A stretch of 64,000 nucleotides of DNA from Escherichia coli (GTDB lineage Bacteria > Pseudomonadota > Gammaproteobacteria > Enterobacterales > Enterobacteriaceae), in the NCBI RefSeq assembly GCF_044324875.1, contig NZ_CP172185.1; one strand, 5' to 3'. The notes below the pieces were generated by a model, which saw nothing but the letters and a program-made list of their open reading frames with translations, was not told the origin of the DNA and did not search any database. Made by a program: the position numbers and the translations under genes. Below are positions 25,188 through 63,393 of the stretch, one piece after another (the stretch's first letter is position 1; every line of letters starts with the position of its first letter).

Positions 25188-25718
25188 ATGGCTATCACTG
25201 GCATCTTTTTCGGCAGCGACACCGGTAATACCGAAAATATCGCAAAAATGATTCAAAAACAGCTTGGTAAAGACGTTGCCGATGTCCATGACATTGCAAA
25301 AAGCAGCAAAGAAGATCTGGAAGCATATGACATTCTGCTGCTGGGCATCCCAACCTGGTATTACGGCGAAGCGCAGTGTGACTGGGATGACTTCTTCCCG
25401 ACTCTCGAAGAGATTGATTTCAATGGCAAACTGGTTGCGCTGTTTGGTTGTGGTGACCAGGAAGATTACGCTGAATACTTCTGTGACGCATTGGGCACCA
25501 TCCGCGACATCATTGAACCGCGCGGTGCAACCATCGTTGGTCACTGGCCAACCGCGGGCTACCACTTCGAAGCGTCAAAAGGTCTGGCTGATGATGACCA
25601 CTTTGTCGGTCTGGCTATCGACGAAGACCGTCAGCCGGAACTGACCGCTGAACGTGTAGAAAAATGGGTTAAACAGATTTCTGAAGAGTTGCATCTCGAC
25701 GAAATTCTCAATGCCTGA
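25188..25718 (+). CDS. fldA: Flavodoxin 1
   Basis: ORF 25071..25718; start [16 protein letters not shown] (FMN-binding motif) gives 176 aa. Confidence 0.9.
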
Positions 25719-25728
25719 TGTGATGCGG

Positions 25729-25760
25729 CGTAGACTCATGTCTACGCCGTATTAATAGAT
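25729..25760 (+). terminator. Hairpin downstream of fldA
   Basis: gcggcgtagactcatgtctacgccg palindrome followed by a T/A-rich stretch. Confidence 0.45.
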
Positions 25761-25923
25761 AATGCCAATCAAAATAATTGCTACAAATTTGTAACTTTTG
25801 CTGTTGTACCTGTACAATGTCCCAGTGTTCAAGTGGCCTTGCCGTTGTAAATGTAAGCAGTGCCACGTTTTTATTAACAATATTTGCCAGGGACTTGTGG
25901 TTTTCATTTAGGCGTGGCAATTC

Positions 25924-25942
25924 TATAATGATACGCATTATC
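25924..25942 (+). promoter_or_regulatory. Fur box-like sequence at the uof/fur promoter
   Basis: tataatgatacgcattatc resembles the Fur consensus GATAATGATAATCATTATC; overlaps the uof start. Confidence 0.5.
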
Positions 25943-26014
25943 TCAAGAGCAAATTCTGTCACTTCTCCTAATGAAGTGAACCGCTTAGTAACAGGACAGA
26001 TTCCGCATGACTGA
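25928..26014 (+). CDS. uof: Upstream ORF of fur (28-aa leader peptide)
   Basis: MIRIISRANSVTSPNEVNRLVTGQIPHD; stop overlaps the fur start by 8 nt. Confidence 0.6.
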   Translation: MIRIISRANSVTSPNEVNRLVTGQIPHD

Positions 26015-26453: not shown

Positions 26454-26467
26454 GCCAGCCGGAACGA

Positions 26468-26497
26468 GAAAAGCCAACCTGCGGGTTGGCTTTTTTA
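26468..26497. terminator. Bidirectional rho-independent terminator between fur and chiQ
   Basis: aagccaacc-tgcg-ggttggctt stem followed by tttttt. Confidence 0.7.
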
Positions 26498-26536
26498 TAC
26501 ACGGGAAATAAGAAAAGCGAGAGTTACAGCTCTCAC

Positions 26537-41235: not shown

Positions 41236-41312
41236 GGCTACGTAGCTCAGTTGGTTAGAGCACATCACTCATAATGATGGGGTCACAGGTTCGAATCCCG
41301 TCGTAGCCACCA
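41236..41312 (+). tRNA. metT: tRNA-Met (elongator, anticodon CAU)
   Basis: 77-nt cloverleaf ggctacgtagctcag...ccacca with anticodon loop ctCATaa. Confidence 0.9.
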
Positions 41313-41321
41313 TCTTTTTTT

Positions 41322-41406
41322 GCGGGAGTGGCGAAATTGGTAGACGCACCAGATTTAGGTTCTGGCACCGCAAGGTGTGCGAGTTCAAGTCTCGCCTCCC
41401 GCACCA
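41322..41406 (+). tRNA. leuW: tRNA-Leu (anticodon UAG)
   Basis: 85-nt class II tRNA gcgggagtggcgaaattggtagac... with long variable arm; anticodon TAG. Confidence 0.9.
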
Positions 41407-41429
41407 TTCACCAGAAAGCGTTGTACGGA

Positions 41430-41504
41430 TGGGGTATCGCCAAGCGGTAAGGCACCGGTTTTTGATACCGGCATTCCCTGGTTCGAATCCAGGTACCCCA
41501 GCCA
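41430..41504 (+). tRNA. glnU: tRNA-Gln (anticodon UUG)
   Basis: 75-nt tggggtatcgccaagcggtaaggcaccggtttTTGata... Confidence 0.9.
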
Positions 41505-41519
41505 TCGAAGAAACAATCT

Positions 41520-41596
41520 GGCTACGTAGCTCAGTTGGTTAGAGCACATCACTCATAATGATGGGGTCACAGGTTCGAATCCCGTCGTAGCCACCA
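41520..41596 (+). tRNA. metU: tRNA-Met (elongator, anticodon CAU), second copy
   Basis: Identical in sequence to the first tRNA-Met. Confidence 0.9.
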
Positions 41597-41644
41597 AATT
41601 CTGAATGTGTCGAATGCGTTCGGCAAATTCACAAACCAATTTGT

Positions 41645-41719
41645 TGGGGTATCGCCAAGCGGTAAGGCACCGGATTCTGATTCCGGCATTCCGAGGTTCG
41701 AATCCTCGTACCCCAGCCA
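41645..41719 (+). tRNA. glnV: tRNA-Gln (anticodon CUG)
   Basis: 75-nt tggggtatcgccaagcggtaaggcaccggattCTGatt... Confidence 0.9.
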
Positions 41720-43193: not shown

Positions 43194-44618
43194 ATGACCA
43201 AAAAACTCCATATTAAAACCTGGGGCTGTCAGATGAACGAGTACGATTCATCGAAGATGGCCGATCTGCTGGATGCCACCCACGGCTATCAACTGACCGA
43301 CGTGGCGGAAGAAGCGGATGTGCTGCTGCTGAACACCTGCTCAATCCGCGAGAAGGCTCAGGAAAAAGTCTTCCATCAGTTGGGTCGCTGGAAACTGTTA
43401 AAAGAGAAGAATCCAGACCTGATTATCGGCGTCGGCGGCTGCGTGGCATCGCAAGAAGGCGAGCACATTCGCCAGCGCGCCCACTATGTCGATATTATTT
43501 TTGGGCCGCAAACGCTGCACCGCCTGCCGGAGATGATCAACTCCGTGCGCGGCGACCGCAGCCCGGTTGTAGATATCAGCTTCCCGGAAATCGAGAAGTT
43601 TGACCGTCTGCCGGAACCGCGTGCCGAAGGGCCGACCGCGTTTGTCTCCATCATGGAAGGCTGCAATAAATATTGCACCTACTGCGTAGTGCCTTACACC
43701 CGTGGTGAAGAGGTAAGCCGTCCGTCCGACGATATTCTGTTTGAGATTGCCCAACTTGCTGCTCAGGGCGTGCGTGAAGTTAACCTGCTCGGCCAGAACG
43801 TGAACGCCTGGCGCGGTGAGAACTACGACGGCACCACCGGATCGTTTGCCGATCTACTGCGTCTGGTTGCTGCGATCGACGGGATCGATCGTATTCGCTT
43901 TACCACCAGCCATCCGATCGAATTCACCGACGATATCATCGAAGTGTACCGCGACACGCCGGAGCTGGTGAGCTTCCTGCATCTGCCGGTACAGAGCGGT
44001 TCCGATCGCATTCTGAACCTGATGGGACGTACCCATACAGCGCTGGAGTACAAAGCGATCATCCGTAAACTGCGTGCGGCGCGTCCGGATATTCAGATCA
44101 GTTCTGACTTCATCGTTGGCTTCCCTGGTGAAACCACCGAAGACTTCGAGAAAACGATGAAGCTGATTGCCGACGTCAATTTCGACATGAGCTACAGCTT
44201 TATCTTCTCTGCACGTCCGGGTACGCCAGCCGCCGATATGGTTGATGATGTTCCGGAAGAAGAGAAGAAGCAGCGTCTGTATATTCTACAAGAACGTATT
44301 AATCAGCAAGCGATGGCATGGAGCCGCCGGATGCTCGGCACCACCCAGCGTATTCTGGTAGAAGGTACATCGCGTAAGAGCATCATGGAGCTTTCCGGTC
44401 GCACTGAAAATAACCGCGTGGTCAACTTCGAGGGCACACCGGATATGATCGGTAAATTCGTCGATGTAGAAATTACCGACGTCTACCCGAACTCTCTGCG
44501 CGGTAAAGTGGTGCGAACTGAAGATGAAATGGGTCTGCGCGTGGCAGAAACACCGGAATCGGTGATTGCCCGTACCCGCAAAGAAAACGACCTTGGCGTG
44601 GGTTATTATCAGCCGTAA
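43194..44618 (+). CDS. miaB: tRNA (i6A37) methylthiotransferase, radical SAM
   Basis: 474 aa; radical-SAM CxxxCxxC (CNKYCTYC) plus N-terminal MTTase cysteines. Confidence 0.95.
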
Positions 44619-48883: not shown

Positions 48884-50761
48884 TTACGGTTCAGGGATAC
48901 AAGCCACATCGCCATATTGGGGATGCCGAATAATTGCCTGCGGATCAAGCGAGCGCGTCCTGTCCATTTGGATTAACCCGTTCTTCGCCATAACAAATAT
49001 CTTTCTACCATCCGCTGAAAAACGAAGATGATTAACGTAGCTGGCAGGATAAACGCCAATAATCTGCCCGGCATTAATATTGAGCAGAATGACATAACCT
49101 TGCAGGCCATATGACACCAACGCTAAATACTGACCGTCCGGGCTAATACCCTCAACGGAATAAACGCTCCTGCTACACCATTGCGTCATAATGCTGGCTT
49201 GCTGATCCCCAACTCTTATACGTGAAATCCCCTGGCTGTCGGCAAAAATTACATCCCCGTTTTCAGGTCGAAAACGCATCGCCGATATCGTTCCACGCGC
49301 ATCACTAGCCGGATAGCTTTCTTTTTGATGCGTGATGGTATTGATGCGTACAATGTCACCTCTGACCATACCGGGTATCAACAATGTTTTTTCATCCGGG
49401 GAAAGTGCCATAACCCAGGCGCCTGGTTTACCGCTCGTCCCCGTCCCGTCGTATTTCTCCAGCGGGATATCCGCCACATGCTGATAAGCCACCAGATCAA
49501 TGGCTGACACACTATTACTGGTGCGATTCATCACCCAGGCTTTTGTGCCATCGCGCGAGAGGATAAGGCTGTCAGGATGTGCGCCGGTGGTAATCGACTG
49601 AATAATCTCCCCCGTCGCCACGTTAATGACCGATAACGCATTCGCTTCAAATGAAGTTGCATAAAGCAACGTTTCATCCGGGCTTAACGCCAGCGATCTG
49701 ACGGCCTGATCTTTACAGCCACCACAATGTTTGAGTGACTTTTCTTTCGCTATGGGCGCTGTAAAGGTATGCAGGATTTTCTTTTGTCCGAGGTCGAAAA
49801 CAACAATGCTGTTGGTGTTTTCAATTGCGGCATACAACGTATTACCATCCCGACTGATCGCCATATCATGGATATCGGCAATCTCAGCGAGCAAATCACC
49901 ACTGGCCTGCTCACGACTTACCGGAGCGGATAATGTTTCCCTGAGGGCGTTGCGCTCCTCCACTAACTGCTGCTTTTTTTGTCGTCGCTCTTGTTCAATC
50001 TCCTGCGGATAAAACTCTTCACGCAGGCTGTGCCTGACCAGTAAAACTGATTCATCAATCTGCTGCTGCACAAGCCAGATAGCCCCGGTAAGAAGAAGAC
50101 TGCCCGCAACAATAATCCCGCCTTCCGTAACAAGCCGGTTTTGCCCAGATAAACGCGCACTCAGCCACCCCAACGCACCACCCGCAATCAGGCCGCCAAT
50201 ATGACAAGCATTATCTATTCCTGTTTGCCGGGCACCATACAACAGTGTCAGCGCCACCATACCCAACAGAGAAAATACTCGCCGCTGGTTTTTATGGTAT
50301 GTGCCCGCACCTGAAGCAAGCTGTGTTGCTATCGCAGCGCCAGCAATTCCCATAATTGCCCCGGATGCCCCAACGCTGATGACTATCTGCTCACTTTCGC
50401 GTAACGCATAACAGGCGCTGATTAGCCCACCAAAGACGCCAGAGAATAGCCAGACAATCAGGAGTCGCCATTTCCCCAGTATCCGTTCCGCCACTGCCCC
50501 CACCACCAGGAGTGCAAACATATTCATCAGCAAATGGGGAAAACTACTGTGCAGAAAGACACTGCTCAATAAGCGCCAGGGTTCACCCGACAACGTGAGA
50601 GAAGCAACGTTAGCACCAAGATGGATGAGTGCGGATTGATCGACGTCTTCATAACTCATCCATTGTGCGAGATAACAAAATATCCCAACACAGAGCGCAA
50701 AAAGGATAAGAGTTATTGCGGGTAATTGAACATTTAACGGCTTAACCGAAGATGCAGACAT
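48884..50761 (-). CDS. Rhomboid-family intramembrane serine protease fused to a C-terminal YVTN/WD40-like beta-propeller (625 aa)
   Basis: N-terminal polytopic region with rhomboid motifs GASGAIMG (Ser) and HIGGLIAG (His); linker rich in E/R/Q; C-terminal repeats SRDGNTLY, SPDETLLYA, SRDGTKAWV, SPDEKTLLI, SPDGQYLAL, SADGRKIFV. Confidence 0.75.
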   Translation of the reverse strand: MSASSVKPLNVQLPAITLILFALCVGIFCYLAQWMSYEDVDQSALIHLGANVASLTLSGEPWRLLSSVFLHSSFPHLLMNMFALLVVGAVAERILGKWRLLIVWLFSGVFGGLISACYALRESEQIVISVGASGAIMGIAGAAIATQLASGAGTYHKNQRRVFSLLGMVALTLLYGARQTGIDNACHIGGLIAGGALGWLSARLSGQNRLVTEGGIIVAGSLLLTGAIWLVQQQIDESVLLVRHSLREEFYPQEIEQERRQKKQQLVEERNALRETLSAPVSREQASGDLLAEIADIHDMAISRDGNTLYAAIENTNSIVVFDLGQKKILHTFTAPIAKEKSLKHCGGCKDQAVRSLALSPDETLLYATSFEANALSVINVATGEIIQSITTGAHPDSLILSRDGTKAWVMNRTSNSVSAIDLVAYQHVADIPLEKYDGTGTSGKPGAWVMALSPDEKTLLIPGMVRGDIVRINTITHQKESYPASDARGTISAMRFRPENGDVIFADSQGISRIRVGDQQASIMTQWCSRSVYSVEGISPDGQYLALVSYGLQGYVILLNINAGQIIGVYPASYVNHLRFSADGRKIFVMAKNGLIQMDRTRSLDPQAIIRHPQYGDVACIPEP

Positions 50762-51215: not shown

Positions 51216-52124
51216 ATGCAATTACGTAAACCTGCCACAGCAATCCTGGCCCTGGCGCTTTCCGCAGGACTGGCACAGGCAGATGACGCCGCCCCGGCAG
51301 CGGGCAGTACGCTGGACAAAATCGCCAAAAACGGTGTGATTGTCGTCGGTCACCGTGAATCTTCAGTACCTTTCTCTTATTACGACAATCAGCAAAAAGT
51401 GGTGGGTTACTCGCAGGATTACTCCAACGCCATTGTTGAAGCAGTGAAAAAGAAACTCAACAAACCGGACTTGCAGGTGAAACTGATTCCGATCACCTCA
51501 CAAAACCGTATTCCTCTGCTGCAAAACGGCACTTTCGATTTTGAATGTGGTTCTACCACCAATAACGTCGAACGCCAGAAACAGGCGGCTTTCTCTGACA
51601 CTATTTTCGTGGTCGGTACGCGCCTGCTGACCAAAAAGGGCGGCGATATCAAAGATTTTGCCGACCTGAAAGGCAAAGCCGTAGTCGTCACTTCCGGCAC
51701 TACCTCTGAAGTTTTGCTCAACAAATTGAATGAAGAGCAAAAAATGAATATGCGCATCATCAGCGCCAAAGATCACGGTGACTCTTTCCGCACCCTGGAA
51801 AGCGGTCGTGCTGTTGCCTTTATGATGGATGACGCTCTGCTGGCAGGTGAACGTGCGAAAGCGAAGAAACCGGACAACTGGGAAATCGTCGGCAAGCCGC
51901 AGTCTCAGGAAGCCTACGGTTGTATGTTGCGTAAAGATGATCCGCAGTTCAAAAAGCTGATGGATGACACCATCGCGCAGGTGCAGACCTCCGGTGAAGC
52001 GGAAAAATGGTTTGATAAGTGGTTCAAAAATCCCATTCCGCCGAAAAACCTGAACATGAATTTCGAGCTGTCAGACGAAATGAAAGCACTGTTCAAAGAA
52101 CCGAATGATAAGGCACTGAACTAA
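51216..52124 (+). CDS. gltI: Glutamate/aspartate ABC transporter periplasmic binding protein
   Basis: ORF 51141..52124; start MQLRKPATAILALALSAGLAQA (signal peptide) gives 302 aa. Confidence 0.9.
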   Translation: MQLRKPATAILALALSAGLAQADDAAPAAGSTLDKIAKNGVIVVGHRESSVPFSYYDNQQKVVGYSQDYSNAIVEAVKKKLNKPDLQVKLIPITSQNRIPLLQNGTFDFECGSTTNNVERQKQAAFSDTIFVVGTRLLTKKGGDIKDFADLKGKAVVVTSGTTSEVLLNKLNEEQKMNMRIISAKDHGDSFRTLESGRAVAFMMDDALLAGERAKAKKPDNWEIVGKPQSQEAYGCMLRKDDPQFKKLMDDTIAQVQTSGEAEKWFDKWFKNPIPPKNLNMNFELSDEMKALFKEPNDKALN

Positions 52125-52281
52125 TTACAAGAACCAGGGGCGGAAATTCCAGCCCTCTCGATTGTTACGTAGCACGGACAGACTATACGCCTGATGGTCG
52201 TTCCCCATCGGGCCTGAAAACCGCAATACGCTGGGTAACAATCTTCGAGGGTAGCAGTTAACGCTGCTACCCTCTTTTTTC
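52125..52281 (+). ncRNA. sroC: Candidate sRNA SroC, processed from the gltI-gltJ intergenic region
   Basis: Intergenic stretch ending in hairpin gagggtagcagttaacgctgctaccctc plus ttttttc (52248-52281); position matches where SroC is described. Confidence 0.45.
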
Positions 52282-52293
52282 TGGAGTAGATTT

Positions 52294-62252: not shown

Positions 62253-62409
62253 ATAATTTATCCTTAAATATTCATTCAATGAATATTAACCACGTTGCGA
62301 GGCTCATTTATTTATACTTTTCTGACGCAACATAATACGCATAAAATAAGGCTTACGCAAAAATGGAACACATAAAAATATAATATGTTTTATATGCAAC
62401 CATAAGGAA

Positions 62410-63393
62410 ATGATAATGATTTTTACGTCAAGTTGCTGCGATAATTTATCAATAGATGAGATTATCGAACGTGCTGAAAAAGGCGATTGCGAGGCTCAAT
62501 ATATTATTGGGTTTTATTATAATCGCGATAGCGCAATTGACTCTCCGGACGACGAAAAAGCCTTCTACTGGCTGAAGCTGGCCGCTGAGCAAGGCCATTG
62601 TGAAGCACAATATTCCTTAGGGCGGAAATACTCCGAGGATAAAAGCCGTCATAAAGATAATGAGCAAGCCATCTTTTGGCTGAAAAAAGCTGCCCTACAA
62701 GGCCATACTTTCGCTTCCAACGCCCTTGGCTGGATACTGGATCGTGGAGAAGACCCCAACTATAAAGAAGCGGTTGCCTGGTATCAGATAGCCGCGGAGA
62801 GCGGAATGTCTTATGCGCAAAATAATCTTGGATGGATGTACAGAAATGGCAACGGAGTCGCTCAAGACTATGCGCTGGCATTTTTCTGGTACAAACAAGC
62901 TGCATTACAAGGCCATAGTTACGCACAAGACAATCTGGCCGATCTTTATGAAGACGGAAAAGGCGTTGCTCAAAACAAGACACTCGCCGCATTCTGGTAT
63001 TTGAAAAGCGCACAGCAGGGTAATCGGCATGCCCAGTTTCAAATTGCATGGGATTATAACGCTGGCGAAGGGGTGGACCAGGACTATAAGCAAGCCATGT
63101 ACTGGTATCTGAAGGCTGCCGCTCAGGAAAGCGTCGGCGCTTACGTCAACATCGGTTATATGTATAAACATGGACAAGGCGTTGAGAAAGATTATCAGGC
63201 CGCCTTTGAATGGTTTATGAAAGCCGCTGAATGCAATGACGCCACTGCCTGGTATAACCTGGCCATTATGTATCACTACGGAGAAGGAAGACCTGTCGAT
63301 CTCCGACAGGCTCTCGACCTGTATCGTAAAGTTCAGGCATCCGGTACCAGGGATGTCAGTCAAGAAATCCGTGAGATTGAAGATTTACTGTAA
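62410..63393 (+). CDS. ybeQ: Sel1-repeat protein
   Basis: 327 aa; multiple Sel1 repeats. Confidence 0.8.
   Translation: MIMIFTSSCCDNLSIDEIIERAEKGDCEAQYIIGFYYNRDSAIDSPDDEKAFYWLKLAAEQGHCEAQYSLGRKYSEDKSRHKDNEQAIFWLKKAALQGHTFASNALGWILDRGEDPNYKEAVAWYQIAAESGMSYAQNNLGWMYRNGNGVAQDYALAFFWYKQAALQGHSYAQDNLADLYEDGKGVAQNKTLAAFWYLKSAQQGNRHAQFQIAWDYNAGEGVDQDYKQAMYWYLKAAAQESVGAYVNIGYMYKHGQGVEKDYQAAFEWFMKAAECNDATAWYNLAIMYHYGEGRPVDLRQALDLYRKVQASGTRDVSQEIREIEDLL

Follow-up and report, generated by a model that had tools for sequence, protein, structure and literature searches.

The window analysed here is a 64,000-nt stretch of an Escherichia coli chromosome (GCF_044324875.1, contig NZ_CP172185.1), the plus strand of which corresponds to the minus strand of K-12. 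It carries the control region of fur, in which the flavodoxin gene fldA is followed by the short leader ORF uof and then by fur itself, the same gene order as in K-12 and in XJ6.1 (Table 1). The segment from 25700 to 26460 matches 5,424 of 5,426 complete E. coli genomes; the matches listed are 96.7-99.9% identical to it, and each of them has fldA, "uof: fur leader peptide" and fur as the RefSeq features beneath it. In K-12, uof is b4637, annotated as "RyhB-regulated fur leader peptide", at 710639-710725. Aligned over 361 nt, from the end of fldA through the leader to nt 54 of fur, the window shows four differences from K-12 MG1655 (about 99% identity), none of which falls in the Fur box, in the hexamers of Pfur or within the first 40 nt of uof. 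One of the four differences replaces serine with proline at codon 14 of uof and is the only amino-acid change in the peptide. Among the 5,424 genomes that match, 393 have exactly the uof sequence of the window, with Pro14, and nearly all of the remaining ones are a single base off; phenylalanine is found at this codon in another E. coli.

The uof-fur control region seen here is already known, being almost identical to the well-studied K-12 sequence. The locus is very probably a standard, intact E. coli fur control region, consisting of a Fur operator, uof and fur, with both autoregulatory and post-transcriptional control. The first-pass annotation had described it as an intact autoregulatory architecture with nothing new about it, a description borne out by the near-identity to K-12, the RefSeq annotation and the match to NCBIfam NF011344. 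As a textbook regulatory region in its expected state, it makes a positive control for recognising Fur boxes and leader ORFs. The additions are modest: the overlap between the Fur box, the -10 hexamer and the uof ATG is clarified, the Ser14Pro change is a minority allele, and the leader hairpin is conserved more widely than the uof frame.

Table 1. Features of the fldA-uof-fur region, with coordinates in the window
Feature	Position	Strand	Basis or remark
fldA (flavodoxin 1) CDS, upstream neighbour	25188..25718	+	NCBIfam NF006735, 403 bits; K-12/XJ6.1 synteny
Stem-loop just 3' of the fldA stop (CGGCGTAGAC-TCAT-GTCTACGCCG), without U-tract	25726..25749	+	read directly
Upstream sigma-70-like promoter TTGTAA-18-TACAAT, Puof candidate	25789..25818	+	promoter scan, 9/12
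SNP vs MG1655: A here, G in K-12	25825		upstream of uof
SNP vs MG1655: A here, T in K-12	25860		upstream of uof
Pfur: -35 TTTTCA (25901-25906), 17-nt spacer, perfect -10 TATAAT (25924-25929)	25901..25929	+	promoter scan, 10/12
Fur box (Fur operator) TATAATGATACGCATTATC	25924..25942	.	16/19 to consensus; 16.99 bits; same as K-12
uof, 28-codon fur leader ORF, including stop	25928..26014	+	direct ORF reading; NF011344; RefSeq annotation
UCA serine codon 6 of uof (TCA in DNA)	25943..25945	+	codon list; MiaB role from PMC11448259
GAGCAA, complementary to RyhB nt 42-47 (UUGCUC; includes G44, C45)	25947..25952	+	duplex prediction
Conserved leader hairpin (UCACUUC/GAAGUGA, 7-nt loop)	25959..25979	+	MFE and centroid folds; covariation
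SNP vs MG1655: C here, T in K-12	25968		uof codon 14 Ser to Pro (Ser14Pro), non-synonymous
fur Shine-Dalgarno AGGA (25993-25996) and adjacent ACAGA	25993..26000	+	MFE structure
fur CDS, 148 aa	26007..26453	+	NCBIfam NF006999, 309 bits; annotation in relatives
SNP vs MG1655: A here, G in K-12	26055		inside fur
fur intrinsic terminator (AGCCAACC-TGCG-GGTTGGCT, then T-run)	26462..26487	+	read directly

The stem-loop behind fldA was not called a terminator by the terminator scan, and at the same place in other genera the alignment has stem-forming sequences made up of other bases; the terminator of fur is absent from the output of the same scan. The spacer between fur and chiQ (26454-26536) is short, uninterrupted and K-12-like, whereas XJ6.1, which at 99.9% identity is the closest complete genome to the 761-nt fldA-fur query among the matches listed, has an IS200C transposase gene between the two (L002, 2420-2878). 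At 41236-41716 and 52120-52282 the window has five clustered tRNA genes and sroC, an sRNA (175 bits), which is what this region of the E. coli chromosome would be expected to carry.

The uof frame and the structure of the leader RNA

Read directly, uof begins with an ATG at 25928-25930 and continues through 28 sense codons to a TGA at 26012-26014. The encoded peptide, MIRIISRANSVTSPNEVNRLVTGQIPHD, matches the NCBIfam equivalog for the fur leader peptide over residues 1-28 of 28 (81.3 bits against a cutoff of 71, E = 3e-23), in agreement with the 28 codons given in the first-pass annotation. The same source had the uof stop overlapping the start of fur, which is right for the reading frames but not for the codons themselves: uof starts 79 nt upstream of the fur ATG (26007-26009), the junction reads ATGACTGA, and the stop therefore does not coincide with the fur ATG but starts 3 nt after it, giving an ORF overlap of 8 nt. 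The uof start has no obvious Shine-Dalgarno sequence on direct reading. With the K-12 uof-fur leader (Vecerek, Moll & Blasi 2007, EMBO J 26:965) the window shares the placement between fldA and fur, the 28 codons, the 8-nt overlap, the UCA at codon 6 and the RyhB-complementary GAGCAA; it differs by the T to C change at 25968, which lies in the loop of the leader hairpin, and by the two SNPs upstream of uof.

How widely is this frame kept? A degenerate pattern for the Fur N-terminus retrieved 120 fur loci from the Enterobacterales. In Escherichia, including E. albertii, as well as in the Citrobacter freundii group and the Enterobacter cloacae complex, uof is intact, with 28 or 29 codons, and ends at +5; it is also intact in Kosakonia, Leclercia, Phytobacter, Kluyvera, Pseudocitrobacter, Pluralibacter gergoviae, Superficieibacter, Siccibacter and Pseudescherichia. 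Length differences of 1 or 2 nt break the frame and bring in an early stop in Salmonella enterica arizonae, C. amalonaticus and C. sedlakii, and likewise in Klebsiella oxytoca, Raoultella, Lelliottia, Pseudenterobacter and Atlantibacter. (The same ATG opens an ORF of 16 codons in Salmonella arizonae and of 14 in K. oxytoca.) In Serratia and Pantoea the conserved ATG opens an ORF of four codons, and Cedecea and Mangrovibacter have an upstream ORF in a different frame that ends in ATGA. The frame in the window is thus of the intact, Escherichia type, while the picture among its wider relatives is mixed. Since the hairpin, the Shine-Dalgarno sequence and the promoter motifs persist in taxa where uof is broken, coupling to this particular ORF is not a universal requirement. 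Y. enterocolitica has been reported to be without uof (PMC7867234); its fur leader and those of Salmonella arizonae and Klebsiella share with the window the fldA-fur synteny, the -10 sequence TATAATGA and the Shine-Dalgarno context ACAGGAC...CCGCATGAC, and the latter two also share the leader hairpin, but unlike the window none of the three has an intact uof. For annotators, this means that homology is no ground for calling a uof in Salmonella or Klebsiella: the motifs around it are conserved there in both RNA and DNA, but its frame is not intact.

Other arrangements occur among these leaders. In Enterobacter asburiae (L025), the second codon of fur is ACA instead of ACT and the uof stop is lost, leaving an upstream ORF of 49 codons that overlaps fur by about 70 nt. 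Four leaders, from Cedecea colo (L087), Dryocola (L107), Enterobacter sp. R1 (L021) and Buttiauxella warmboldiae (L092), have the ATG of TATAATG in frame with fur and no stop in between, so that long transcripts could encode a Fur protein with an N-terminal extension of 22-23 residues.

The leader is also predicted to be structured. The minimum free energy fold of the short leader contains the hairpin at 25959-25979 and, flanking it, pairs UCUGU (25955-25959) with ACAGA (25996-26000) and CC (25981-25982) with the GG of the Shine-Dalgarno AGGA. The fold energy of the leader is not thermodynamically unusual (z = -0.83), and Rfam, scanned with the leader at E <= 10, yielded nothing above noise and no matching family. 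In a covariance-model alignment of 52 leaders, itself fitted to the structure, seven of the eight hairpin pairs have changed on both sides, 87.5% of the cells are paired, and the hairpin score was reached in none of 500 shuffles. For the Shine-Dalgarno region, the same alignment has helix 1 paired in 83% of cells, with three pairs changed on both sides, and helix 3 in 95%. As a control, folds of single sequences place a hairpin at the same position but build it from other stems (CUUCCC/GGGAAG, GCUUCG/CGGAGC, GCUCC/GGAGC, UCCCC/GGGGA and GCCC/GGGC). A plain MAFFT alignment of 44 leaders gave RNAalifold only a trivial 3-bp helix, because the hairpin arms are misaligned in it, and in 18 gapless close relatives the hairpin core is invariant and hence says little about pairing. 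Judged from the aligned sequences, the hairpin is strongly supported by compensatory change, and the flanking pairing may sequester the Shine-Dalgarno sequence of fur.

What, then, has been selected in this leader? One possibility, which we put forward tentatively, is that the primary and ancestral cis-element of the enterobacterial fur leader was a structured RNA, consisting of the hairpin and the helix that pairs with the Shine-Dalgarno region, and that coupling through uof is a lineage-restricted development from a chance ATG in the Pfur -10 and chance stops in the first codons of fur. A related proposal, that uof is largely a by-product, its ATG made up of the last bases of the -10 hexamer and a conserved G and its stop being forced by the codons of fur, with selection acting on the structured leader RNA and uof translation a lineage-restricted add-on, appears unlikely, although much in the alignment agrees with it. 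The first codons of fur, ATG-ACT-GAT, put a TGA in both of the other frames, so a stop beside the fur ATG is automatic. The sequence TATAATGA(G/T/A)ACGCA is kept in 75 distinct leaders, from Escherichia to Serratia, Pantoea and Edwardsiella, even where the ORF stops after four codons. The frame of the ATG reaches fur in 36 of these 75 leaders, compared with 33 of 75 for the control frame, so there is no order-wide enrichment of an open uof frame, and leader lengths of 76, 77, 78, 80 and 81 nt occur beside 79 and 82, showing that indels are not confined to multiples of three. The hairpin covaries and is retained where uof is frameshifted, as in Salmonella arizonae and Klebsiella, and codon 14 can be Ser, Pro or Phe within E. 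coli alone. Codon-position variability can be read in two ways: third positions vary more in codons 18-21, but Salmonella arizonae, with its broken frame, conserves those nucleotides as well. On the other hand, among leaders of 79 or 82 nt, which come from about a dozen genera, the frame stays open in 25 of 26 even though their middle codons (5-16) have diverged strongly, and experiments in K-12 report that translation of uof is needed for translation of fur (PMC7534054, PMC12683245). The by-product proposal and coupling are not mutually exclusive, since the accepted model needs the act of translation and not the peptide.

Promoters and the Fur box

The Fur box begins with the six bases of the perfect -10 hexamer of Pfur and thereby overlaps the core promoter, and the last two bases of the hexamer together with the next G (TATAATG) form the ATG of uof. 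The earlier observation that a Fur-box-like 19-mer overlaps the uof ATG was therefore accurate, and annotators should be aware that the Fur box, the -10 of Pfur and the uof start codon share the same few bases. Because the -10 supplies the bases of the ATG, transcripts from Pfur start inside uof and lack its start codon, and the short, Fur-repressed mRNA consequently cannot translate uof. The uof start codon is present only on the longer mRNAs made from promoters further upstream, a fact already in the literature, where two mRNAs are described, a fur mRNA, whose promoter Pfur is "located within the uof ORF", and a uof-fur mRNA of greater length that comes from Puof (PMC6191717), and where transcription start sites a and b are placed inside uof, with the Fur box over the -10 of Pfura (PMC7867234). 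Both reports include a promoter upstream of uof, and co-transcription of fur from ybfE and fldA is described in PMC4161252.

From the sequence, the motif TTGTAA-18-TACAAT is probably Puof, the source of the uof-containing mRNA. It is present in all 17 aligned leaders, representing 15 genera, across which the TGTACAAT block does not vary and the -35 region hardly does. Just upstream of this promoter and over its -35 sits a further block, AATAATTGCTACAAATTTGTAACTTTT (25768-25800), which is kept in the same 17 leaders with most positions invariant and which in E. coli holds the palindrome TACAAATTTGTA (25782-25793). This block has the look of a site for a transcription factor, and one candidate would be the OxyR site reported for fur.

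The existence of long transcripts raises the possibility that the Fur box acts mainly as a roadblock to RNA polymerase arriving from the upstream promoter or from fldA, instead of occluding Pfur, and so controls the uof-containing transcripts directly. The geometry would permit this, since the box follows the upstream promoter-like motif at a distance of about 110 nt and is transcribed as part of the long mRNAs. However, the box coincides exactly with a perfect -10 hexamer, which is the classical geometry of occlusion, and a mainly roadblocking role appears quite improbable, even though the two modes could coexist.

By its sequence, the 19-mer at 25924-25942 is a strong Fur operator. It agrees with the classical consensus GATAATGATAATCATTATC at 16 of 19 positions and is the sole match with at most three mismatches on either strand of the window, where shuffles lead one to expect 0.02 (two of 100 shuffles gave any match). 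It was also scored with a symmetric 19-bp Fur matrix, iterated from the consensus on 13 Fur-repressed intergenic regions of K-12 (fepA-fes, fepD-entS, fepB-entC, fhuA, fiu, fhuE, tonB, cirA, exbB, fecA, fecI, fhuF and ryhB), fur being excluded. In the scan of the window the site ranks second of 63,982 positions with 16.99 bits, within the 8.1-19.6 bits spanned by the training sites when each is left out in turn, and comparable to the fepB-entC, cirA and fecI sites, and none of 20 shuffled windows reached 16.98 bits. This score and rank, together with identity to a footprinted K-12 site, mean that the matrix score cannot be called weak. The same 19-mer lies over the -10 hexamer in the Fur-autoregulated fur promoter of K-12, with its footprinted operator (de Lorenzo et al. 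1988), from which the sequence here has no detectable difference, and the K-12 fur promoter is among the 11 DNase-footprinted Fur regions used in PMC2189734. That Fur boxes are AT-rich and contain TATAAT-like hexamers, and that three of the 19 positions are off consensus, would suit the notion that this is simply an AT-rich -10 region resembling a Fur box by chance, but given the uniqueness of the match in 64 kb, the bona fide score and the footprint on the identical K-12 sequence, this is scarcely credible. A weak companion site of 3.4 bits is shifted by 6 nt (25918-25936), which fits the clustering of Fur sites with 6-base spacing described in PMC2189734.

The highest matrix score in the window, 18.6 bits, belongs to another sequence, GGAAATGATAATGATTTTT at 62406-62424, which overlaps the ybeQ ATG (62410) in the divergent ybeR/ybeQ intergenic region and, going by this score, could be an unrecognised Fur site. 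Lesser scores of 13-14 bits are found at 50197, 60010 and 55373.

Translational coupling, RyhB and MiaB

The first-pass annotation had recognised in this locus the known arrangement for translational coupling and RyhB control of fur. The literature agrees, in that translation of fur is coupled to that of uof and RyhB blocks initiation at uof (PMC7534054, PMC12683245), as does the annotation of b4637 in K-12. As the literature has it, Fe-Fur would bind the box and repress Pfur, constituting the autoregulatory loop, and the Pfur transcripts would have their 5' ends in uof, a few bases past the -10, and so be without its start codon. Longer mRNAs, arising from the upstream promoter and by read-through from fldA, would carry uof, and ribosomes translating it would run into the start of fur, whose translation would thus be coupled. 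RyhB, made when Fur is inactive, would pair at the uof initiation region, resulting in less uof translation and hence less Fur. The 8-nt overlap and the predicted pairing of the Shine-Dalgarno sequence provide a geometry compatible with a dependence of fur translation on uof, and we suggest that coupling might work through the unfolding of the conserved hairpin and of the flanking helix that pairs with the Shine-Dalgarno region. Similar control is exerted by GcvB on the leader peptides thrL and ivbL, where the sRNA likewise prevents a short upstream ORF from being initiated, so that the gene downstream is expressed less (PMC7534054). In those cases, however, the output is transcription attenuation, whereas for uof it is translational coupling via overlapping ORFs.

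MiaB is an Fe-S tRNA methylthiotransferase. Decoding of the uof UCA codon by a tRNA-Ser that depends on MiaB is reported to make the translation of uof and fur responsive to iron (PMC11448259), and decoding of uof would in this way depend on an Fe-S enzyme. The miaB gene itself is in the same window, at 43194-44618 on the plus strand, 17 kb downstream of fur (TIGR01574, 739 bits).

Inversion of G44/C45 in RyhB abolishes repression of uof/fur (PMC6191717). These two nucleotides belong to the RyhB segment that is complementary to GAGCAA in uof, and UGAUAC at 25929-25934 is complementary to RyhB 60-65; both complementarities are the same as in K-12, and ryhB itself lies outside the window. RyhB control of the uof found here would accordingly be inherited from K-12 by identity. 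Duplexes of full-length RyhB with the leader, computed by RNAduplex, were meaningless whole-molecule pairings, and the leader was instead scanned with the seed only, against a background of random 30-mers from the window. The predicted seed duplex in uof has an energy of -12.9 kcal/mol, at about the 24th percentile of the random 30-mers. Since this is no better than about a quarter of the background, and since an unrelated site upstream does better, RyhB control cannot be confirmed from the sequence, and a benchmark has likewise found that the published RyhB-uof model is not computationally predictable (PMC3018821).

The better site, at 25844-25873, has the best predicted seed duplex of the leader (-17.2 kcal/mol) and falls within the 5' UTR of the long transcript, ahead of uof. 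As it is only within the top 6% or so of random 30-mers, this predicted pairing is probably due to chance. The site includes the strain-specific SNP at 25860, which adds one base pair with RyhB, and the stretch, AAATGTAAGCAGTGCCACGTTT, resembles by eye a pair of CRP half-sites.
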